Shown here: positions 4,236 to 48,761 of the stretch, in pieces
Numbering within the stretch: the stretch's first letter is position 1
Layout of the letters: every line of letters begins with the position of its first letter
NCBI GenBank assembly: GCA_964566535.1
Contig: CAZMIO010000008.1
Location: 1-48,761 of the forward strand
Direction: 5' to 3'
DNA length: 48,761 nt
From: an uncultured Methanosarcinales archaeon
GTDB lineage: Archaea > Nanobdellota > Nanobdellia > Woesearchaeales > CAZOXR01
Made by a program: the position numbers and the translations under genes
The notes under the pieces: model-generated
Seen by the model: only the letters and a program-made list of their open reading frames with translations
What the model was told of the DNA's origin: nothing
Databases searched by the model: none

Positions 4236-5489
4236 ATGAAACTAGTCTGTATAGAATGTAAAAAGTCATACCTGGCAGAAGAAATCCGATATAGATGCGA
4301 CTGCGGAAACCTACTTGAAATAATCTCAGATCTAAAAAAATTCAACAGATCACCAAAACAGTGGAAACAACACTTCGAAAATAACAACTCAAAACCCCCT
4401 TTCCTAAGATACAAAGACATACTTCTACCTGACCTCCCAGACAATCAAGTTATCTTACTAAATGAAGGAGACACTCCCCTCTACCCTGCAACAAAAGAGA
4501 TGCAGGAATACTTCAAAATAACCAATTTAAAATTAAAACACGAAGGAATGAACCCCACACTCAGCTTCAAAGACAGAGGTATGGTTGCAGCAGTATCATG
4601 GGCAAAACATCTAAAAGTAAAATTAGTTGCCTGCGCATCAACTGGAGATACATCTGCCTCAATGGCAGCTTACGCAGCCTATGCTAGAATCAAAAGAGTA
4701 GTCTTATTACCAGAAGGAAAGGTCTCAATAGAACAATTATCCCAACCAATCTCATCAGGCGCAATAACATTAGAACTGGACACCGATTTCGATGGTTGTA
4801 TGAAACTAGTTCAAGAATTAACCAAAAAATACCCAATCTACTTATTAAATTCTATGAACTCAATAAGAATTGAAGGTCAAAAAGCAATTGGTATCGAAAC
4901 ACTACACCAATTAAATTGGGAAGTTCCTGATTGGTTCATCGTTCCAGTAGGAAACGCCGGAAACATTTCAGCCTTAGGTAAAGGATTAAGAGAACTTCAT
5001 GAATTAGGAATAATCAACAAACTCCCAAGACTCGCAGGAATTGAAGTAAAAGCCGCAAACCCTCTGTACATAAGCTACAAAAACAACTGGGCACCATTAG
5101 AGCCAGTCCAAGCAAAAGAAACAGTAGCATCAGCAATCCAAATTGGCAATCCAGTCTCATTCAAAAAAGCAGTTAGAGAACTTAAACATTTCAAAGGAGT
5201 CATGGAACAAGTAAGTGAACAAGAAGTCAAAGACGCAAAAGCAGTTGTAGACGCATCTGGAATCCCAATCTGTCCAAATTCAGCAGCAGCAATGGCTGGA
5301 CTAAAAAAACTAATAGATAACAACATAATAAAACAAGAAGAAAGTGTAGTTGCAATCATGACTGCACATGGCGGAAAGTTCTCAAAAGCTGTAATTGATT
5401 ATCATAAAGGCAACAACAAATTCTCAAACAAGCCAAAGTCTCTAAAAGCAAATTTAGAAACGATTGAAGAGACTTTAGGATTGAAATGA
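4236..5489 (+). CDS. thrC: Threonine synthase
   Basis: EGDTPL, NPTLSFKDRG (PLP lysine), ASTGDTSAS, PVGNAGN; N-terminal Cys ribbon. Confidence 0.95.
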   Translation: MKLVCIECKKSYLAEEIRYRCDCGNLLEIISDLKKFNRSPKQWKQHFENNNSKPPFLRYKDILLPDLPDNQVILLNEGDTPLYPATKEMQEYFKITNLKLKHEGMNPTLSFKDRGMVAAVSWAKHLKVKLVACASTGDTSASMAAYAAYARIKRVVLLPEGKVSIEQLSQPISSGAITLELDTDFDGCMKLVQELTKKYPIYLLNSMNSIRIEGQKAIGIETLHQLNWEVPDWFIVPVGNAGNISALGKGLRELHELGIINKLPRLAGIEVKAANPLYISYKNNWAPLEPVQAKETVASAIQIGNPVSFKKAVRELKHFKGVMEQVSEQEVKDAKAVVDASGIPICPNSAAAMAGLKKLIDNNIIKQEESVVAIMTAHGGKFSKAVIDYHKGNNKFSNKPKSLKANLETIEETLGLK

Positions 5490-9155: not shown

Positions 9156-9265
9156 AAACTAAGAGTTTTAGAATCAGTTATAAAGTTTACTCAAAGAAAA
9201 TCAGAACTTCATTAAAGGTATTATTGGTACCAATCTAAATATTCTAAAAATTTTAAAATCCCTTA

Positions 9266-14420: not shown

Positions 14421-15593
14421 ATGAACTCAAAAGAAATAATAAACTCAGAAAAGAAGCATATAATGCCAACTTATGGTAGATTCCCAATCGTAATCGACCA
14501 TGGCAAAGGCAGCTACATCTTCGACAAAGAAGGAAATAAATACCTTGATCTAATAGGGGGCCTAGCAACAGTACCTATTGGACATGGAAACGAAGAACTT
14601 CAAAAAACTCTATCAGAACAATCAAAGAAACTAATTAACATTACAAACTTATTCTACTCCGAACAACAAGTTATCTTAGCAGAAAAATTAGCAAAACTTT
14701 CAAACCTAGAAAAATCATTCTTCTCAAACTCAGGCTCAGAAGCAAACGAAGTAGCAATAAAGTTAGCAAGAAAAGTAAAAAACAAACCAGAGATAATCTC
14801 AACAGAAAAAGCATTCCACGGAAGAACAATGGGGGCCCTTTCAGCAACGCATAAAAAAAAGTACAAAGAATACTGCGAGCCACTAGTGCCTCACTTCAAA
14901 CACATTCCCTACAACAATGTAGAAGCACTAAAAAAAGCAATAACCAAAAACACTGCAGCTTTCATAGTTGAACCAATACAAGGAGAAGCAGGAATAGTAA
15001 TCCCAAACAAAGACTACTTAGCAAATGTAGCAAAGGTCTGCAAAGAAAACAATATCCTACTCATCATTGACGAAGTCCAAACCAGCCTAAGAACAGGAAA
15101 ATTCTTAGCTTACCAACACAACAACATAAAACCAGACATATTAACGCTAGCAAAAGGAATAGCAAATGGAGTTCCAATAGGAATAACATTAGCAAAAAAA
15201 GAAATAGCAGACAAGTTCGAGCCAGGAGACCAAGGAACTACCTTCGGAGGCAACTCATTAAGCTGTGCAGCTGCAAATTGCGTTATTAATTTTGTTGAAA
15301 AGAACAAGTTAATCGATAAAGGGAAGGAATTAGGAAACTATTTTATAGAAAAGTTAACTGTCTTAAAAGATAAACACAATTCCATAAAAGAAATAAGGGG
15401 AGTAGGATTAATGATTGCAGTAGAAACAAACAAAAGCTCAAAAGATATTGTAAACAAATGTCTAGGAAAGGGCCTACTTGTAAATCCAGTAACAGAAACT
15501 GCATTAAGATTCCTTCCACCATTGATAATCTCAAAAAAAGAGATAGACGAAGCAATAAATATACTAGATAGCGTCTTCTCCCAAAACATTTAA
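14421..15593 (+). CDS. argD: Acetylornithine aminotransferase (class III)
   Basis: NSGSEANE, FHGRT, EPIQGEAG, DEVQT, LAKG, GTTFGGN. Confidence 0.88.
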   Translation: MNSKEIINSEKKHIMPTYGRFPIVIDHGKGSYIFDKEGNKYLDLIGGLATVPIGHGNEELQKTLSEQSKKLINITNLFYSEQQVILAEKLAKLSNLEKSFFSNSGSEANEVAIKLARKVKNKPEIISTEKAFHGRTMGALSATHKKKYKEYCEPLVPHFKHIPYNNVEALKKAITKNTAAFIVEPIQGEAGIVIPNKDYLANVAKVCKENNILLIIDEVQTSLRTGKFLAYQHNNIKPDILTLAKGIANGVPIGITLAKKEIADKFEPGDQGTTFGGNSLSCAAANCVINFVEKNKLIDKGKELGNYFIEKLTVLKDKHNSIKEIRGVGLMIAVETNKSSKDIVNKCLGKGLLVNPVTETALRFLPPLIISKKEIDEAINILDSVFSQNI

Positions 15594-41040: not shown

Positions 41041-44000
41041 TTAAATCTTTTATAATAATCCTCTAAATTATCAACAGAAATATCTCCTTTAATAAAACTT
41101 TTAATCGCACTAACATAAGCCAAAGTTCCAGGTTTAGTCGTAACATAAGGAATTCCCATCTCAACACATCCTCTTCTGATCTTATACCCATCAGAACCAA
41201 CTCCGGAACCACTAGGAATAATTATTATCATATCCAACTTCTTACCCTTCATCATATCAATAATCTTAGGGTCTTCATGCACCTTCGGAACAGCCTTAGC
41301 ATTTATCCCCTTAGAAGAAAGAAACTCCTGAGTTCCTTCAGTACAATAAACATCAAAACCTAACTTAACCAAATCCTTAGCAATCGGAACAAAGAAATCC
41401 TTATTCCTATCGCGCCCTATACTCAAAAGAACATTCCCTTTCTTTGGTAAGTTCATATAAGAAGCAGCCTGTGCCTTGTAGTAAGCCTTGCCAAAATCAG
41501 AATCAATTCCCATAACTTCCCCAGTCGATTTCATCTCAGGACCAAGCACTGGATCAACACCGGACAATTTAATGAAAGGAAATACTGCTTCTTTAACCGA
41601 AACAAAATTAGGCTCTTTATAATCCTTAAGCCCAAATTCAGATAATTTCTTTCCCATCATTAATTTAGTAGCAATCTTAGCAAGCGGAATCCCAATTGTC
41701 TTAGAAACATAAGGAACAGTCCGCGAAGCACGAGGATTAGCCTCAAGTATATACACTACACCATCCTTAATTGCATACTGTATGTTCATAAGCCCAATAA
41801 CCTTAAGCTCCTTAGCAAGCTTAGTAGTATACTCAATAACTGTTCGTTTAACTTCAGCAGAAATTGTCTGTGGAGGTATAACACAAGCAGAGTCTCCAGA
41901 GTGAACTCCTGCCTCTTCAATATGTTCCATTATTGCAGCAACATAAACCTCCTTACCATCACAAAGCGCATCAACATCAAGTTCAATCGCATTTCCTAAA
42001 AACTTATCAACCAAAACTGGCTTATCAGGACTAACGGAGGCAGCTTCCTTCATATACTTCTTAAGCTCTTCATCAGAATCAACAACCTTCATGGCCCTAC
42101 CACCTAAAACAAAACTAGGCCTAACTAAAACTGGATAACCAATCCTAGCAGAGATCTCAAGCGCCTCAGAAATAGACAGAGCAGTTCCCCATTCAGCAGA
42201 AGGAATCTTCAACTTATCCAAAATCCCACCAAACCGTTTCCTATCTTCAGCCATATCAATACTCTCAGGAGATGTTCCCAAAATATTCACACCAGCTTCA
42301 TGTAATCTCATAGCCATATTTATCGGAGTCTGTCCACCAAACTGAACAATAACTCCATATGGCTTTTCTCGTTCAATAACATTCATAACATCCTCAAAAG
42401 TCAAAGGCTCAAAATACAATTTATCGGAAGTGTCAAAATCAGTTGAAACTGTTTCTGGATTATTATTAATTATCTGAGCCTCAATTCCCATCTCACGCAA
42501 TGAGAAAACAGAGTGCACACAACAATAATCGAACTCAATTCCCTGCCCAATCCGAATAGGCCCACCACCAATCAAAATAACCTTCTTTTTATCAGAAATA
42601 TTAGACTCATCCTCTTCCTCATATGTAGAATACATATAAGGAGTATATGCCTTAAACTCAGCAGCACAAGTATCAACCATCTTATACGTAGGAATAATTC
42701 CCTCACCAATCCTAAACTTCCGAACTTCATCCTCACTCTTACCAACAATAGTTGCAATCTGAACATCAGAAAATCCGTTCCTCTTAGCATCTAAAATAGA
42801 ATCCTTATCAAACTTAATCTTCTTCCCCATATCATAAACATTTTTAACTTTAGTCAGGAACCATTTATTTATCCCAGTCAAATGATGTATCTCATCTATA
42901 CTGATCCCAATATGCATTGCATCTCTAATATACATCATCCTTTTGTGCGTTGCAACTTTTAAGTTCTGAACTATCTCTTTCTTATCTTTGCATATCTTAT
43001 CCTTAGGATCATGACCAAGCCCAAATCTTCCAACCTCAAGAGACCTAATTGCTTTCTGAAGAGCTTCCTCAAAAGTCCGTCCAATAGCCATAGTCTCCCC
43101 AGTTGATTTCATCTGAGTTCCAATCCGCTTATCAGCCGTATCAAACTTATCAAAAGGCCATCTCGGGATCTTCACAACAACATAATCAATTGTCGGCTCA
43201 AAACAAGCCTTAGTCTCCTTAGTAACATCATTTGGAATCTCATCAAGTGTCATCCCAATTGCAATCTTAGCAGCAATCCTAGCAATAGGGTAACCAGTGG
43301 CCTTTGAAGCTAAAGCAGAACTTCGACTAACTCGAGGATTAACTTCAACAATCATATAATCTCCAGTCTTATAATTCATTGCAAACTGAATATTACATCC
43401 GCCCTCAACCTTTAGCGCTCTTATGATCTTAATAGCAGAAGTACGTAAAACCTGAAAATCATGATCATTCAATGTCTGAGTTGGAGCAACAACAATTGAC
43501 TCCCCAGTATGTATCCCCATCGGATCAAAGTTCTCCATCGGACAAATAATTATGCAGTTATCATTCTTGTCCCTCATTACTTCCATCTCAAACTCTCCCC
43601 AATCCTGAGTCCCCATAATAGCCTGTTCTAGCAAAACCTGATCAATCATACTCTGAGTTAACCCAGAATTAACAAACTGCTTCAACTCAGAATCATTGTA
43701 AGCAATTCCACCACCAGCCCCACCAAGCGTATAAGCAGGACGAATAATAACGGGATAGCCATACTCAGAAACAAACTCCTTAGCAGAATCATATGAATTT
43801 ATAATCGCACTCTCAGGAATTGGTTCCTCAATCTCCTTCATCAAATTCTTAAACTTCTCCCGATCTTCACCATCCTCAATAGCTTTTATAGAAGTCCCAA
43901 GTACCTCAACCTTACACTCATCCAAAATCCCAGATTTTGCCAACTGTTGAGCCAAGTTCAACCCAGTCTGCCCACCCATAGTAGGAAGTAACCCATCAGG

Positions 44001-44246
44001 CTTCTCTTTCCTAATAATCTTAGAAAGAATCTCAACATTCAGAGGCTCAATATAGATCTTATCCGCAACATCAGTATCAGTCATAATCGTAGCCGGATTA
44101 GAATTCACGAGTATAACCTTATACCCTTCCTCTCGAAGTGCTTTACAGGCTTGCGTACCTGAATAGTCGAATTCTGCGGCTTGGCCTATTACAATCGGGC
44201 CCGACCCAATTACCATAATTTTCTTCAAATCTTTTCGCTTCGGCAT
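41037..44246 (-). CDS. carB: Carbamoyl-phosphate synthase large subunit
   Basis: MPKR..GSGPIVIGQAAEFDYSG; duplicated ATP-grasp; MGS tail. Confidence 0.98.
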   Translation of the reverse strand: MPKRKDLKKIMVIGSGPIVIGQAAEFDYSGTQACKALREEGYKVILVNSNPATIMTDTDVADKIYIEPLNVEILSKIIRKEKPDGLLPTMGGQTGLNLAQQLAKSGILDECKVEVLGTSIKAIEDGEDREKFKNLMKEIEEPIPESAIINSYDSAKEFVSEYGYPVIIRPAYTLGGAGGGIAYNDSELKQFVNSGLTQSMIDQVLLEQAIMGTQDWGEFEMEVMRDKNDNCIIICPMENFDPMGIHTGESIVVAPTQTLNDHDFQVLRTSAIKIIRALKVEGGCNIQFAMNYKTGDYMIVEVNPRVSRSSALASKATGYPIARIAAKIAIGMTLDEIPNDVTKETKACFEPTIDYVVVKIPRWPFDKFDTADKRIGTQMKSTGETMAIGRTFEEALQKAIRSLEVGRFGLGHDPKDKICKDKKEIVQNLKVATHKRMMYIRDAMHIGISIDEIHHLTGINKWFLTKVKNVYDMGKKIKFDKDSILDAKRNGFSDVQIATIVGKSEDEVRKFRIGEGIIPTYKMVDTCAAEFKAYTPYMYSTYEEEDESNISDKKKVILIGGGPIRIGQGIEFDYCCVHSVFSLREMGIEAQIINNNPETVSTDFDTSDKLYFEPLTFEDVMNVIEREKPYGVIVQFGGQTPINMAMRLHEAGVNILGTSPESIDMAEDRKRFGGILDKLKIPSAEWGTALSISEALEISARIGYPVLVRPSFVLGGRAMKVVDSDEELKKYMKEAASVSPDKPVLVDKFLGNAIELDVDALCDGKEVYVAAIMEHIEEAGVHSGDSACVIPPQTISAEVKRTVIEYTTKLAKELKVIGLMNIQYAIKDGVVYILEANPRASRTVPYVSKTIGIPLAKIATKLMMGKKLSEFGLKDYKEPNFVSVKEAVFPFIKLSGVDPVLGPEMKSTGEVMGIDSDFGKAYYKAQAASYMNLPKKGNVLLSIGRDRNKDFFVPIAKDLVKLGFDVYCTEGTQEFLSSKGINAKAVPKVHEDPKIIDMMKGKKLDMIIIIPSGSGVGSDGYKIRRGCVEMGIPYVTTKPGTLAYVSAIKSFIKGDISVDNLEDYYKRFN

Positions 44247-44305
44247 TTTATTAGTGGTTTTTTCCGTTTTTAATTTATTTTAATTTTTTAATTATTGATT
44301 AGTTT

Positions 44306-44824
44306 TTATTGGTTTTCCATTTTTATTTTATTTTTATATTCTAAATAATCATCAAAAACTTTCTTAGCAGTCGGACTCAATTTACCCTCTTTCTCAAACC
44401 CCCTTATCTCATCAAAAGTCATAAACCTCCCTTGCTCAACTTCTTCCTCTTGTAATTTCATCGGACCATTAGATTTACACAAAAAGATCTTTTTATTTGC
44501 ATTATGACCCTCTGATCGAAATCTCTGATTAAATAAAAATTCTAACTCAACATCTTTTATCCCAATCTCTTCCCCTAATTCCCTTTTAGCAGTCTCTTCA
44601 TAGCTTTCCCCAGCACTAACAGCCCCACCAACCTTCGTATCCCACATTCCAGGATACAAGAACCTAGTAATAGTTCTCTGATGAACAAAAAGTTCACCTT
44701 TATCATTCTCAACAATAATATTAGCAGACCTATGAATTAAATTATTTTCTTCAACTTCCTTCCTAGGCTTTTCACCTATAATATTGTCATTTTCATCAAC
44801 AACAGATAGTATTTCTTCTTTCAT
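44306..44824 (-). CDS. NUDIX hydrolase (IDI/YfcD-like)
   Basis: GGAVSAGESYEETAKRELGEEIG Nudix box. Confidence 0.9.
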   Translation of the reverse strand: MKEEILSVVDENDNIIGEKPRKEVEENNLIHRSANIIVENDKGELFVHQRTITRFLYPGMWDTKVGGAVSAGESYEETAKRELGEEIGIKDVELEFLFNQRFRSEGHNANKKIFLCKSNGPMKLQEEEVEQGRFMTFDEIRGFEKEGKLSPTAKKVFDDYLEYKNKIKMENQ

Positions 44825-45897
44825 TTTAAATCCTTAACAAACCTATCAAATATATTCTCAATATCCCACGGCCCAGGGTTAGCCTCTGGATGCATCTGTA
44901 TAGTTTGAATAGGCAATTTATCATGCTTTACCCCCTCAACAGACTCATCATTCAAATTCACATGCGAAACGAAAAGCCCAGTTCCATCCAAACTCTCAGC
45001 ATCAACTGCAAAACCATGATTTTGAGAAGTAATATACACCTTATTCTCAGCAATATCCTTAACAGGCTGATTAGTACCCCTATGTCCAAACTTTAACTTG
45101 TAAGTCTTACCACCCAAAGCCAAACTAACAATCTGATTCCCAAAACAAATTCCAGTAATAGGAAGTTCAGACTGCAATTCCCTAACACAATTAATAGCAT
45201 CAACAGCCTTCTCAGGATCCCCTGGACCGTTAGCAACAAACAACCCATTAGCCTTCAAATCAATAATCTCCTGAGCACTAACATTGTAAGGTAATTGCAC
45301 AACATTAACCTTCCTCTTCAAAAAATTCCTAATAATAGAATGCTTCACACCAGTATCAATCATAGCAATTGTTTTCTTACCGGAACAATCATGCCTAACT
45401 GCTTCCTTAACAGAAACTTTCTCTAAAAAATTAAACGAAGAATAATCCTCCATCTTCTTAACCTTATCAACTATTTCCTTAACATCAATCTCTCCCTTAG
45501 AAACAACTAACGCCCCATTCATAACTCCATGAACCCTTATCTTCTTAACCAACATACGAGTATCAATACCATAAATCCCAGGAATCTCATATTCAGAAAG
45601 AAATTCACCAAGCGACTTAACGGCACCTCTGTGCTGGTAAAAATCACTATAATCCCTCACAACAAAACCCTCAACCTGTACCTTGTCAGACTCAAACTTT
45701 CCCTCCCTAACCCCATAATTCCCAACTAAAGGATAAGTAGCAGTTAAAATCTGACCCTTATACGAAGGATCAGTCAAACTTTCCTCATAACCAACCATTG
45801 AAGTGTTAAACACAACCTCTCCAACCGTCTCTTTCTCAGCCCCAAAACCATGACCGCAAAGCACAGTCCCATCACTAAGAACTAAAACTGCTTTCAT
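44821..45897 (-). CDS. carA: Carbamoyl-phosphate synthase small subunit
   Basis: GEVVFNT, NGPGDP, GICFG, SQNHGF, HPEA. Confidence 0.98.
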   Translation of the reverse strand: MKAVLVLSDGTVLCGHGFGAEKETVGEVVFNTSMVGYEESLTDPSYKGQILTATYPLVGNYGVREGKFESDKVQVEGFVVRDYSDFYQHRGAVKSLGEFLSEYEIPGIYGIDTRMLVKKIRVHGVMNGALVVSKGEIDVKEIVDKVKKMEDYSSFNFLEKVSVKEAVRHDCSGKKTIAMIDTGVKHSIIRNFLKRKVNVVQLPYNVSAQEIIDLKANGLFVANGPGDPEKAVDAINCVRELQSELPITGICFGNQIVSLALGGKTYKLKFGHRGTNQPVKDIAENKVYITSQNHGFAVDAESLDGTGLFVSHVNLNDESVEGVKHDKLPIQTIQMHPEANPGPWDIENIFDRFVKDLK

Positions 45898-46021
45898 ACA
45901 AAATCACCACGAATAGATATACTTAGAGAAATAAAGACCTCATCATTTAATGAACAATTTTTCATTAAAAATATGAATGATGTTACTTGATATAAAAATA
46001 TTGTGGTTGTTTAGTTAGAAT

Positions 46022-46813
46022 TCAATATTAACACTTAATTTGGTTGATGAAATCACTCAAACTCGTGGTCAAAGTAATAAAGAATGTGTTGGCCAAGGAA
46101 TTGGTAACGTCGTTACTGGTTTTTTTGGAGGAATGGGTGGTTGTGCTATGATTGGTCAAAGTATGATCAATGTTGAAGCTGGTGGTAGAACCAGACTATC
46201 AAGTTTTAGTGCTTCAATATTCCTATTAATTTCAATCCTGTTTGCAGCACCACTAATAGAGATGATACCTGTAGCTGCATTAGTTGGGGTTATGTTTATG
46301 GTAGTTATAGGCACTTTTGAATGGTCCAGTCTTAGAGTTATTAATAAAATTCCAAGATCTGATGCTTTTGTATTAATGTTAGTTAGTATAGTAACAGTTC
46401 TTACTGACCTTGCAACTGCAGTAGTTATAGGTGTTATAATTAGTGCACTTGTTTTTGCATGGAAGAAAAGTGCAGTTATACAAGCTAAGGTTGTTTTGGG
46501 TAAAGGCAAGAAAACATATAAGTTAAGCGGACCGTTATTTTTTGGTTCAATTAGAACTTTTACAGATTTATTTGATATTAAAAAAGATCCAGAAAACGTA
46601 TATGTTGATTTTAAATATTCAAGAGTTCATGACCATAGCGCGCTCGAAGCAATTGATAATCTTACTGAAAAGTACGCAAAGGCTGGAAAAGAACTCCACG
46701 TCTTAAATGTAAGTCATGAATGCAAGGAACTATTAACAAAAGCCAAAGACATCACTGAAATTAACCTCATTGAAGATGAATGGATGCACATAGCTAGTAA
46801 TAAATTGGGTTAG
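46022..46813 (+). pseudogene. 5'-truncated SulP/STAS anion transporter
   Basis: Begins mid-protein (SILTLNLVDEIT..NKECVGQG..GGCAMIGQS); in-frame TAG at 46016-46018; STAS domain intact. Confidence 0.8.
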
Positions 46814-46825
46814 TATATTGCGCTT

Positions 46826-47803
46826 GTTATACGTTTTTTCTGCAAGAAAAAAAGCCGAAGGCGGAATGGAGTCCGGAAAAATTTCGTCCGAAAAGTTGAG
46901 AAAAAGACCGTCCCCTTAAAGCACGGAGTGCCTTAAAGGGAAAGAAGTTTAGGCGGGGCGTTATCAATATATTTTTAAATCAAATTTGATTTCTATTGTA
47001 ATTATGCATCCTAAATTAGCAGTAATATTAAATGGAGCTAAATCTATTGTTTTATTGAAATATCAAGTTCCAGGATATGAAGAGAGGGCAGAAGAATACA
47101 AACATAATGCATATATGTATGCACTTAGAAGAGCTCAAATTGATGAAAACCCATATCCTGATGATATTGGAACAGTTATTGACTCAGTAATTTTAAGGTT
47201 TTATCAGGGTAGGAGAGTTGAGATTATAAAAAATGAAGAAGGTGCACACTTTATTAGAACACCAAATGGTAATTACCATTATATTGATATGCAAATTTCC
47301 GAAGCACAATTAAGAAAGGGAAGACATTATGAAGCTTTATCAAAAAGTGCTGTTAGAAGATATTTGATTCAAATAAATCCATTATCTAAGGTAACGTCAG
47401 CAGTTGAAGATTTAGGGAATACTGTTAGGTGGGAATTAGATTCATTAAATTATATATTATATAGATTAAATGATACATTAGCGATTGGTTCAGAAGGTAC
47501 TAAAGGAAGTTTATCATCTCCTCAAGATCCCTTAGAATTAATATTAGGATTAGATACTCCAAAATCTTTGCCTGCTCCTTCAACAGATAAAACAGATTAA
47601 ATTACTAAAAGCCCCGCCCCTACAAGTTAAAGGTCTTTTTCTCAATTGTAACTAACATATGCGATTAACCGCAGTTCCGAAGCCCTCGAAAATTCCGACC
47701 CATATGGATGGAGGAATTTTCAGAGTTGGCTGAGGAATTGGGGAGAGGAACGAATTTTGCTTGGCAAAATAGCGGAGCGGTCGTTCCGAACCGGTTAATC
47801 GCT
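46826..47803 (+). mobile_element. Putative gene cassette unit 1
   Basis: GTTATAC start; conserved 29-mer (46868-46896); nested inverted repeats around the gene; attC-like hairpin at the 3' end. Confidence 0.55.
47004..47600 (+). CDS. Cassette cargo, hypothetical protein
   Basis: ATG 47004 lies ~23 nt after TTTTAAAT; no recognisable motif. Confidence 0.7.
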   Translation: MHPKLAVILNGAKSIVLLKYQVPGYEERAEEYKHNAYMYALRRAQIDENPYPDDIGTVIDSVILRFYQGRRVEIIKNEEGAHFIRTPNGNYHYIDMQISEAQLRKGRHYEALSKSAVRRYLIQINPLSKVTSAVEDLGNTVRWELDSLNYILYRLNDTLAIGSEGTKGSLSSPQDPLELILGLDTPKSLPAPSTDKTD

Positions 47804-47810
47804 GTTAAAT
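47650..47810 (+). repeat. attC-like recombination hairpin
   Basis: AACTAAC...GCGATTAACCG [branched stem-loops] CGGTTAATCGC-T-GTTAAAT (GTTRRRY). Confidence 0.6.
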
Positions 47811-48761
47811 ACCTTTTCCGTTACGAGCGACTGAAAGGAGCGGAGTTCGGAAAAGTTGCGTCCGCAAAGTAAAATTTCCATTTTCCAATAAATCTTGAGT
47901 AGCAGACAGTATTTTAAAAATCGGGGGCCTTCTATCAATGGAGCGAATAGCGACAATCAAGAATAAGAATCGGGGGGCTCTAGAGTTTATTAAAGTTAAT
48001 TTTATTCTCTATATAGTAGTTACAAAATAGAAAGATTTATAAAGGGTATTATATTCTATTAAAATATGAAACGAAGACGTTTTTTCCAAAGTATTCCTTA
48101 TATTGGAAGTGTAGCTTTAGCTGGAAATGCTTTAGCTCAAGATAGAGAAGTTGAACCTGGATCCAAAATAGTAACACCTACTTCTGAAAGATATCCCAAT
48201 TGGGATAGCGCGGGTAACTTTATTAGAAGAACATCGGATGAAATAATTGAAGGCCCGTTAGAATATATTGCGGATAGTGTAGGCAATCAAGATGGAACAG
48301 TTGAACCAATGGAAGCAGATTATATGAATATGAAGTTTGAGAGAGCTGATAGATTATATGTTTGTTCGATGAATGGTACTGAGTTTTATCTATATGGTAT
48401 GCGAGAAATATTTACATCACTTGATGATGCAATAAAATATTGGAATGATAACCCAAATAGAGGTCCTACAAGTGTGATCGAGTTTGATAAAACTGGGATT
48501 ACTCGAGCTTTTGCGGTCGGAGAAGTAGTTGTGGAACTTGATAATGTTTCTACTGCAGATTATAATGCTAAAATGCAAGAAAGGCGGGATAGAACCCGAC
48601 AAGAAAGATCAAATAGATAATCATTTCACTTAATTTTCTGTTTAGACAAAGACCCCCTTATATTTTTAGCCCCCGATTTATTTATAGAATGGAAATTTTA
48701 TTGTATTTAACATCGCGATTATCCGAAGTGCTTTAAGTCCGAAGGACATTAAAGCATTTGG
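47804..48761 (+). mobile_element. Putative gene cassette unit 2 (runs off window)
   Basis: Starts GTTAAATAC; complementary GTATTTAAC (RYYYAAC) at 48703-48711; same architecture as unit 1. Confidence 0.6.
48066..48620 (+). CDS. Cassette cargo, secreted protein with twin-arginine-like signal peptide
   Basis: MKRRRFF + h-region + ALA cleavage motif; own BRE-TATA at 48024-48043. Confidence 0.75.
   Translation: MKRRRFFQSIPYIGSVALAGNALAQDREVEPGSKIVTPTSERYPNWDSAGNFIRRTSDEIIEGPLEYIADSVGNQDGTVEPMEADYMNMKFERADRLYVCSMNGTEFYLYGMREIFTSLDDAIKYWNDNPNRGPTSVIEFDKTGITRAFAVGEVVVELDNVSTADYNAKMQERRDRTRQERSNR

Follow-up and report, generated by a model that had tools for sequence, protein, structure and literature searches.

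Introduction

In integrons, mostly single and unrelated genes are arranged in arrays between imperfectly palindromic attC sites made up of R''/L''/L'/R' boxes with an AAC/GTT core (PMC5027507, cited here and below for the portion of its text that was available). The R' box beside a cassette belongs to that cassette, ORFan, toxin-antitoxin and open reading frame (ORF)-less cassettes all occur, and the substrate of recombination is inferred to be folded single-stranded DNA (ssDNA). The bottom strand, richer in G:T mispairs, is favored, R-box complementarity covers 6-7 bases, and the AAC of R'' is where the integron integrase would cut a top strand (PMC5027507). In Archaea, the arrays described by Ghaly et al. 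(2022; PMC9668308) are mostly clusters of attC sites lacking integron integrases (CALINs), those in Nanoarchaeota being mostly integrase-less clusters; the accessible portion of that paper gives 6 IntI proteins and 539 attC sites in 75 genomes and does not mention XerA. Here, we consider the last 2 kb of a 48,761-nt contig (CAZMIO010000008.1 of assembly GCA_964566535.1), the whole of which is termed the window, where each of two ORFan genes is enclosed by long stems with arms private to that gene's unit. We lean toward reading the host as a DPANN (Woesearchaeota-type) archaeon and the region as the beginning of an array of mobile gene cassettes akin to an integron.

Like integrons, the array comprises unrelated cargo between sites of the R''/L''/L'/R' type, the R' beside a cassette is that cassette's own, cassettes with ORFans, with toxin-antitoxin genes and without any ORF are all seen, and folded ssDNA is the inferred substrate. 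It differs in that no IntI was found, the linked recombinase being of the XerA type and without the IntI insert, with its gene lying downstream of the array on the same strand. The R boxes are of 9 bp, there are three extra covarying hairpins, and two cassette-specific long-range stems surround the cargo. Whereas integron cassettes are mostly promoterless, with a common promoter (Pc) beside intI/attI, the present cassettes have their own TATA-like box, and it is the top (cargo-sense) strand that is predicted to fold better, unlike the bottom strand used by integrons (PMC5027507). Long enclosing stems, which the sequence-only reading of the window had held to be foreign to canonical integron cassettes, are indeed absent from the canonical attC anatomy as described in that portion of PMC5027507.

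Other described systems share single traits with the locus. Integrative mobile elements exploiting Xer (IMEX), especially CTXphi, the ssDNA genome of which folds a dif-like hairpin, combine a housekeeping-type Xer with a folded ssDNA site, as the present system would, and tandem build-up beside a chromosomal site is plausible in both cases; the present units differ as small recombinase-less cassettes with unrelated cargo, in long arrays and with their own end-to-end stems and side hairpins (PMC3442271, PMC3089051, in their available portions). In pdif/Xer modules of Acinetobacter plasmids, single genes also lie between Xer-type sites and are thought to move as modules, yet those sites are double-stranded and of 28 bp (PMC7399989, in part). 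Single-recombinase systems of the XerS/difSL type resemble the locus in having a single xer gene beside its site, yet resolve chromosome dimers, with no cassette array described in the portion of PMC2731167 available. Promoter-early stem-loop (PeSL) cassettes of T4-type phages also bracket ORFans with promoter and stem-loop modules and undergo modular shuffling, with mini-circles, although there shuffling proceeds by recombination between repeated modules, and attC-like sites, long-range stems or a linked tyrosine recombinase do not figure in the accessible part of the account (Arbiol et al., 2010; PMC2839356). In the available portion of a 2021 review (PMC8371274), the words "cassette," "DPANN" and "single-stranded" never occur. 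No account of XerA-linked arrays, side hairpins or enclosing stems in DPANN was found in the literature, as represented by main texts. We know, moreover, of no pdif module with folded long sites, side hairpins or cassette-specific enclosing stems.

The origin of cassettes and the choice of the site pair for excision are open questions in the integron field, and the system described here is a natural variant that bears on both. Three differences make it so, namely, an apparently ordinary Xer-type recombinase, a reversed favored strand, and cassette-specific pairing that could perform synapsis. In addition, a conserved frame around unrelated cargo, together with empty frames, provides a handle on cassette genesis; were capture of genes into empty frames to be true, this would offer a testable route to the unsolved origin of gene cassettes. 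The short, portable sequence rules defined below lend themselves to in vitro tests with purified XerA and oligonucleotides, and arrays from archaeal metagenome-assembled genomes (MAGs) that have been listed as attC clusters without an integrase may represent a different system.

Results

Many cassettes are enclosed by stems of their own

The sequence-only reading had described two gene-carrying units in the window, each closed by a long stem (here, S1) and by a second, inner pair (S2). Both stems and both inner pairs were confirmed at the positions given in Table 1. In relatives, an anchored S1 was defined as complementarity over at least 10 positions, one mismatch being tolerated, between an arm directly following AAAG and an arm directly preceding TT and R''. 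Such stems, 10-18 bp long, accompany 30 of 55 strict feet, as compared to 4 of 275 shuffled decoys, and in 29 of the 30 stemmed feet the bases that come after S1 are TTN and an R''-like ...TAAC or similar. Sorted by the length of downstream sequence, stems were found at 0/4 (<0.7 kb), 9/20 (0.7-1.6 kb), 9/10 (1.6-4 kb) and 12/21 (at least 4 kb) feet. In a replicate set that comprised exact foot matches in a species-representative collection and that partly overlaps the first set, 25 of 80 feet were stemmed with up to 2.5 kb downstream, as opposed to 2 of 240 decoys. Anchoring of the stems to invariant feet, as claimed earlier, was borne out by these counts, although not for every unit, in that nine units with at least 4 kb downstream have no such stem.

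S1 and S2 are cassette-specific yet complementary. This was seen in 36 non-redundant units that were selected for carrying a stem, a choice which inflates the pairing rate and leaves variability and anchoring unaffected. Information content is 2.0 bits at ...AAAGT, drops to 0.1-0.5 bits inside S1 and is again 2.0 bits at A-TTG, in line with the earlier statement that the stems differ in sequence while their flanks stay constant. At each of S1 positions 2-13, three or four kinds of Watson-Crick pair are used and 33-36 of 36 cells are paired; 31 distinct S1 12-mers were counted among the 36 units. S1 is mostly of 13-14 bp (range 11-18), and compensatory changes occur inside stem families, such as ...AAGACC/GGTCTT, ...AAGGC/GCCTT and ...AACGGC/GCCGTT. 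S2 (8-16 bp) consists of a G-rich left arm at ~+45 to +60 and a C-rich right arm at ~-20 to -30, for example GGCGGGAC and GTCCCGCC in relative L035, and outscores the 95th percentile of non-cognate pairs in 26 of the 36 units.

Two other explanations of the stems were considered. Diversifying selection on S1 was dropped because three units share an identical S1 while their leaders differ, and a terminator reading was rejected given that the stems have no bulges and loops of 0.2-6.8 kb.

The feet belong to a covarying frame

The segment upstream of each cassette was aligned using 31 canonical 52-nt copies from relatives, with 17 of the 48 copies collected, including both window copies, being variants of other lengths that were excluded. 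In the alignment, R' (GTTAnnnnC) is followed by hairpin A (TTTTCCCATAC-GNA-GTGTGGGAAAA; 11 bp with a GNA triloop and a conserved T.G), hairpin B (TTKC-GTCC-GMAA), AG and an invariant T, the first base of the stem. Covariation is seen in hairpins A and B, with 96.3% of cells being paired, as compared to 85.9% in shuffles (0 of 500 shuffles as high), and with 9 of 15 pairs having changed on both sides; controls slid along the alignment pair in 30-60% of cells. For the helix of hairpin B alone (helix 2 of the alignment), 98.4% of cells are paired and 2 of 4 pairs covary. Covariation of the hairpin preceding the foot had been claimed from the two window copies, and it is this alignment of relatives that upholds the claim. 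In unit 1 of the window, the arms of hairpin A include a T.G and the minimum-energy fold prefers a neighboring local hairpin, TTTTTTCT-GCA-AGAAAAAA. The long-loop hairpin A of unit 2 (TTTTCCG-TTACGAGCGAAGCGGAGTT-CGGAAAA) is also found in L035, L046 and L022 and holds a GCGAAGC-type mini-hairpin of its own.

At its right end, the stem closes with an invariant A, after which come TT and a 9-nt arm, for example GAAACTAAC, representing the R'' of an attC-like site. On this alignment, what had been taken for an invariant left foot, CGTCCGnAAAG, is the covarying hairpin B plus an AG linker, and the right foot, TTG, is TT plus the first base of the R'' arm. A third small hairpin with a GNA triloop, hairpin C, lies between the left arms of S1 and S2, its stem covarying in relatives (GCTC-GAA-GAGC, GTGC-GAA-GCAC). 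The full frame accordingly reads R', hairpin A, hairpin B, AG, S1 left arm, hairpin C, S2 left arm, TATA-like box and cargo, S2 right arm, S1 right arm, TT and R''.

The repeats are attC-like sites that match across their own cassette

The repeats between cassettes are attC-like R''/L''/L'/R' sites, a point absent from the sequence-only reading. By motif inspection, R'' ends in ...TAAC, R' begins with GTTA...., and L'' pairs with L' over 11 bp. The R boxes are of 9 bp, and the sites measure from ~25 nt to over 150 nt. In short sites, for instance TTGAAACTAA-TCACTG-TTAGTTTCTT (L020), an 11-6-11 layout with 8 of 11 positions symmetric is seen, and most sites have arms ~150 nt apart; a dif-like core consists of two ~11-nt inverted arms and a 6-nt spacer (PMC8371274, in its available portion).

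R' matches the R'' of its own cassette. Across the cargo, perfect reverse complementarity to that R'' was found in 19 of 32 units (22 of 32 when one mismatch was allowed), while R' equals the adjacent upstream R'' in only 2 of 31; in the replicate set, 8 of 21 units matched their own R'' perfectly, a number that rose to 13 of 21 when one mismatch was allowed. It follows that the left part of the frame, comprising R', hairpins A and B, and the left arms, moves together with the cargo downstream of it, and that the enclosing stem is an outward extension of R-box complementarity of the integron type. The match is fitted equally well by a crossover at G|TT and by one in the AAC of R''.

The frames are homologous and the cargo is not, given that a single similar cross-unit pair was seen among 94 ORFs in 36 units. 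Units with identical S1 enclose 831, 4274 and 6772 nt. ORF-less frames also exist, namely, L023 (211 nt) and L027 (234 nt), both with full stems, and L038 (43 nt, with a 6-bp stem), showing that the frame can exist without cargo. Of the stemmed units, 26 of 36 carry mostly sense-oriented cargo, with the remaining 10 containing mainly reverse-oriented ORFs or no ORF of at least 50 codons. By eye, a TTTAWAWA-like box lies ~26-34 nt upstream of the ATG in ~14 of the 26 sense-oriented units, and both window units have such a box; these boxes are called TATA-like by comparison with what we take to be the archaeal consensus. Mapping of the crossover by way of the same cargo in two contexts was also attempted, with an all-against-all blastn comparison of the loci yielding only modules and duplicate loci.

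Predicted folding and strand asymmetry favor the cargo-sense strand

Hairpins A, B and C, with their GNA loops, all lie on the cargo-sense strand. In hairpins A and B, 31 G.T cells were counted on this top strand versus 4 A.C cells, 24 of the former coming from the one conserved T.G. When folding was predicted with DNA parameters, the cargo-sense strand was the more stable in 47 of 63 distinct long sites and its complement in 15 (mean -1.48 kcal/mol); among the 63 segments comprising hairpins A and B, the respective numbers were 54 and 4. The asymmetry, to which the sequence-only reading had pointed as a guide to the active strand, favors the cargo-sense strand, which would be the opposite of integrons.

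Circle-junction constructs of three cassettes are predicted to fold into an outer stem, the attC-like hairpin, hairpin A and hairpin B, with the top strand 2.6-5.3 kcal/mol more stable than the bottom strand. Likewise, a 994-nt stretch of the window top strand that spans the first two R' arms (46822-47815) was predicted to form S1, S2 and hairpin C along with the local attC hairpin, in the minimum-energy as well as the centroid structure (z = -4.78 over 20 shuffles, none as good). As proposed earlier, the units look like folded single-stranded nucleic acid with a gene in one arm of a multi-way junction, a view supported by these predicted folds and by the covariation. A scan of positions 44000-48761 against Rfam returned no match at E ≤1. 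As the S1 helices are uninterrupted Watson-Crick duplexes of 11-18 bp with no bulges, as judged by eye, a bulge-helix-bulge or circular-RNA reading was set aside.

Less firmly, we infer that crossover takes place in the AAC of R'' on the cargo-sense strand, which would be the mirror image of integrons. This placement draws on the strand asymmetry, on contig divergence after 47657, and on the ends of arrays nearest xerA. In contigs from four runs (representing at least three studies, as two runs may be one data set), cassette 1 is present at 100% identity and the window sequence is left right after 47657, and none of five xerA-proximal ends contains hairpins A and B or a long site before xerA. 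The stretch 47658-47735 is thinly covered in the four runs and no conclusion was drawn from it; three "skip" joints in the run contigs, with sides of only 20-26 letters, were not used.

A XerA-type gene is linked to the arrays

In the genome of the window (91% complete), no IntI was detected above cut-off (best match to TIGR02249, 109.9 bits as opposed to a cut-off of 265), no Y1 HUH transposase matched PF01797, for which control genomes were positive, and no reverse transcriptase matched PF00078. Co-occurrence with these three enzymes, raised in the sequence-only reading, was hence not seen in this genome, although an intI gene may have escaped assembly. Instead, one full-length XerA is encoded (228.4 bits versus the XerA-model cut-off of 220), together with a 221-aa tyrosine recombinase elsewhere. 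The XerA aligns to positions 5-181 and 231-313 of the IntI model only; as positions 182-230 are skipped, this is a XerA without the IntI-specific insert.

A stretch of 185 nt separates the xerA gene from the end of contig C10, where the sequence starts within an R''-type site that has a GCA-loop hairpin. In five other genomes (G360, G256, G066, G243 and G150), a XerA-type gene lies directly downstream of the last cassette on the same strand; among the matches listed, this is so in 5 of 7 cases with a foot and xerA on one contig. L105, probably the same record as the G150 contig, encodes a XerA 55.6% identical to that of the window genome. Matches to xerA at E ≤1e-30 were obtained in 306 of 401 sampled genomes of the order, a tally which includes 14 unpublished genomes. 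Many of these genes appear to lie within ~1 kb of a contig start (an impression, not a count), which fits with a repeat array upstream. Between the terminal site and the start of xerA, a conserved inverted motif, TGTCCAGTGG ... CCACTGGACA, is found in three genomes (L002, the reverse complement of which is the C10 end; L105, ~1190-1300; and L044, ~15205-15230); this may be an xerA operator.

The system is widespread. A 21-nt foot pattern (at most 2 mismatches) was found in 80 of the 401 genomes (counting the unpublished G315 and G209), with a reversed-pattern control giving mostly 0 per genome. Outside the order, but within the class, at least 3 of 47 genomes (G420, G421 and G469) have it too. 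The foot motif also occurs in 93 stretches of the species-representative collection, nearly all labeled Woesearchaeota, Pacearchaeota, Nanoarchaeota or generic archaeal MAGs (several "uncultured Methanosarcinales"), while a scan of viral contigs returned 0 matches. In addition, it is found exactly on short contigs (L065, 5.1 kb, and L082, 3.9 kb) of MAGs labeled Atribacteria and Actinomycetota, the S1 of L065 being identical to that of window unit 1 (TTGAGAAAAAGACC); binning contamination or cross-domain spread could account for these.

Discussion

A model for the enclosing stems

That the array is integron-like, with S1 and S2 folding each cassette and bringing its two crossover sites together, is a reading to which we give somewhat more credence than doubt. 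Were the cargo-sense strand to become single-stranded, the ends of a cassette would zip up along the 9-bp R box, AG/TT, S1 and S2, for a total of ~35-45 bp, with hairpins A, B and C protruding at the junctions and the cargo looping out. The strand comprising the S1 right arm, TT and R'' would run continuously through the junction while hairpins A and B protruded from the other strand, creating a four-way junction beside the cleavage site. In the array, the fold would set the two sites flanking one cassette side by side; in an excised circle, it would close the attC-like site into a four-way junction. With private stems, a cassette would pair only with itself, so that exactly one cassette would be excised or inserted, and clean single-cassette events by a recombinase without the integron-specific domain would be favored. 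That recombinase would be the XerA-type tyrosine recombinase encoded just downstream of the arrays. Genes would enter pre-existing frames, as the empty and the reused frames suggest.

A fuller version, in which XerA acts on the cargo-sense strand of a mirror-image integron without integron integrase, S1 and S2 serve as private address stems by which the DNA itself settles the choice of partner, folding each cassette into a shape rich in junctions and presenting its two crossover sites jointly, and new cassettes arise by gene capture into the loop of empty frames, is offered tentatively.

Several observations weigh against this model. S1 is not universal. Of the 21 units with 4 kb or more of sequence downstream, only 12 carry it, as do only 25 of the 80 replicate feet, and the nine of those 21 units without an anchored stem of at least 10 are real exceptions. 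Among these, L034 has a degenerate stem with a bulge, the 6-bp stem (TTCTAC/GTAGAA) of the mini-cassette L038 was skipped by the search window, L036, L039, L051 and L052 are left frames with the right partner absent from the sequence covered, two units of L041 have the next module ~1.8 kb downstream with no matching right arm before it, and L042 has a further foot 4.6 kb downstream, again with no matching right arm. A 13-bp pairing would have to span 0.7-6.8 kb of ssDNA, and is physically weak unaided. As to strand, S1 and S2 themselves show no clear asymmetry of G.T over A.C by eye, the sequences compared are related, such that p-values are overstated, and most of the count comes from one T.G. 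The divergence after 47657 could be an assembly effect, as repeats can interrupt contigs, and a metagenome contig identical to the window (L058) exists. No circle or excision joint of acceptable quality was seen when contigs of the four runs were compared to the region, and the first array site of the window has no recognizable R'' at its left boundary. Finally, xerA lies 100 kb away in G267 and 13 kb away, on the opposite strand, in G172.

Alternative explanations

Of the alternatives, the one that survives best, albeit rather unlikely, is that the stems do not guide recombination at all. They would be historical by-products of genes having been captured in the apical loop of hairpin-like empty frames, or have some other function as DNA in the excised circle, for instance in priming synthesis of the complementary strand. 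The ORF-less and mini units L023, L027 and L038, as well as homologous frames around unrelated cargo, with identical S1 around inserts of very different length, speak for this reading, and GNA-triloop hairpins recall single-strand origin signals. Against it, compensatory changes and near-perfect pairing at almost random sequence point to continuing selection on pairing; stem length is, moreover, tightly set, and the stem is fixed to the base beside the R box on both sides.

A function at the RNA level is improbable. Here, paired 5' and 3' ends would form an mRNA chassis (for stability, processing or circularization), or cassettes would be made by way of an RNA intermediate, a route also raised in the sequence-only reading. 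Although all hairpins and G.U-type wobbles lie on the cargo-sense strand and most stemmed units carry sense-oriented cargo, the left arms of S1 and S2 lie upstream of the TATA-like box, if the assumed consensus holds, and would be absent from the cassette's own mRNA. The stems also enclose reverse-oriented and ORF-less cargo, the genome has no match to reverse transcriptase nor the region one in Rfam within the limits given above, and the helices are perfect, without a bulge-helix-bulge motif. C-GNA-G triloops are typical of stable DNA hairpins, and the logic by which R' and R'' match across a cassette is a signature of DNA recombination.

It is very doubtful that the arms are double-stranded terminal inverted repeats bound by a protein, like transposon ends. 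Inverted repeats do lie at both ends of a mobile unit, yet a repeat recognized by a protein is expected to be conserved in sequence, whereas the arms are near random between cassettes, with complementarity being kept, and the cargo encodes no common protein.

Elements of the IS200/IS605 family share with the present units strand-specific hairpins and an ssDNA logic; they have a separate subterminal hairpin at each end, a 4-nt guide and a cleavage tetranucleotide, and IS608 uses AAAG. HUH transposition of this type, with AAAG as the guide at a hairpin foot, as the sequence-only reading had proposed on the strength of one-strand hairpins beside an invariant AAAG, can hardly be credited, since no Y1 transposase was found in the 91%-complete genome, AAAG consists of the 3' half (GMAA) of the covarying hairpin B and the linker AG, hairpins are confined to the left side while the right end is a plain arm leading into an attC-type R'', the two ends are complementary to one another, and the units sit in arrays between attC-like sites, beside xerA.

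Genomic setting and further units

The window is an entire contig (C8) of a 1.45-Mb genome in 37 contigs. Toward the contig end, carA is followed by a 5'-truncated SulP/STAS gene and then by the final 2 kb with the two ORFan genes (Table 1). The first ~265 profile positions of the SulP/STAS gene are gone and its stop codon lies 13 nt upstream of the first R'; the truncation may reflect an off-target crossover or a deletion at the array edge.

Table 1. Features of the array in the window, and of a third unit of the same genome.
Feature	Position	Strand	Basis or remark
5'-truncated SulP/STAS gene fragment adjoining the first array site	46040..46813	+	Sulfate_transp profile positions 265-379 of 380 match residues 1-114; STAS domain
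R' arm of first site, GTTATACGT	46826..46834	+	no match to unit 1 R''; 5/9 positions differ from own R''
Hairpin-A region of unit 1, variant form	46835..46881	+	arms 46835-46842 / 46874-46881, one T.G
Left foot of unit 1: hairpin B (TTTC-GTCC-GAAA) and linker AG	46882..46895	+	helix 2 of alignment
S1 left arm, unit 1, TTGAGAAAAAGACC	46896..46909	+	pairs with 47632-47645, 14 bp
Hairpin C, unit 1, mini-hairpin with GNA triloop (GCAC-GGA-GTGC)	46921..46931	+	fold; same position in relatives covaries
S2 left arm, unit 1, GGCGGGGC	46952..46959	+	pairs with GCCCCGCC at 47611
TATA-like box TTTTTAAAT, ~28 nt upstream of cargo 1 ATG	46972..46980	+	motif inspection; assumed archaeal consensus
Cargo gene 1, ORFan	47004..47600 (46986-47600 from TTG start)	+	ORF; no Pfam match
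S2 right arm, unit 1, GCCCCGCC	47611..47618	+	pairing, fold
S1 right arm, unit 1, GGTCTTTTTCTCAA	47632..47645	+	pairing, fold
Right foot of unit 1: TT and R'' arm GTAACTAAC	47646..47656	+	motif match
Inner part of long attC-like site	47657..47803	+	L'' 47661-47671 pairs with L' 47792-47802, 11 bp
R' arm GTTAAATAC	47804..47812	+	perfectly reverse-complementary to R'' of unit 2 itself (48703-48711)
Hairpin A of unit 2, long-loop variant	47813..47855	+	arms CTTTTCCG 47813-47820 / CGGAAAAG 47848-47855
Left foot of unit 2: hairpin B (TTGC-GTCC-GCAA) and AG	47856..47869	+	covarying alignment
S1 left arm, unit 2, TAAAATTTCCATT at 47870-47882	47870..47884	+	13 bp perfect; 15 with one T.G
S2 left arm, unit 2, AAATCGGGGGC	47918..47928	+	pairs with GCCCCCGATTT; second similar copy at ~47968
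TATA-like box TTTATAAA, ~26 nt upstream of cargo 2 ATG	48036..48043	+	motif inspection; assumed consensus
Cargo gene 2, ORFan	48066..48620	+	no Pfam match
S2 right arm, unit 2, GCCCCCGATTT	48669..48679	+	pairing
S1 right arm, unit 2, AATGGAAATTTTA at 48688-48700	48686..48700	+	pairing
Right foot of unit 2: TT and R'' GTATTTAAC (48703-48711), then start of next attC-like site, cut by contig end	48701..48761	+	motif match
Third unit, contig C19 (L001), S1 TTCGAAAACCCGCC / GGCGGGTTTTCGAA	278-291 / 4448-4461		encloses 4.2 kb with several genes; feet AAAG/TTGA

A metagenome scan with a 29-mer specific to cassette 1 yielded one contig, L058, identical to the window over 46387-48588, which confirms the cassette order and brings no further context. 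Bases 1-92 of L058 (as reverse complement) match carA 45646-45737 in inverted orientation, probably an assembly artefact. In the four runs, of marine/seawater origin, the summed contig depth was ~55-190 over bins containing modules (46764-46859, 47724-47819 and 48684-48761), as compared to ~6-10 over cargo, indicating that many related cassettes in the community share modules.

When the window modules were compared by blast to their own genome, contig C19 was the sole other match. Inside its 4.2-kb cassette, a PIN_2 toxin gene and a small upstream partner lie on the reverse strand (L001, 598-1229, minus), a pair that resembles the toxin-antitoxin cassettes frequent in chromosomal integrons. 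Farther along C19, a 17-bp stem with one G.T (4921-4937 / 9198-9214) surrounds a 4.3-kb unit of seven genes that include zinc-ribbon membrane proteins. The feet of this unit differ, as do the neighboring site types (e.g., GTTAGGC and then directly AAAG at ~4845), such that pairing of cassette ends extends beyond the CGTCCG foot family.

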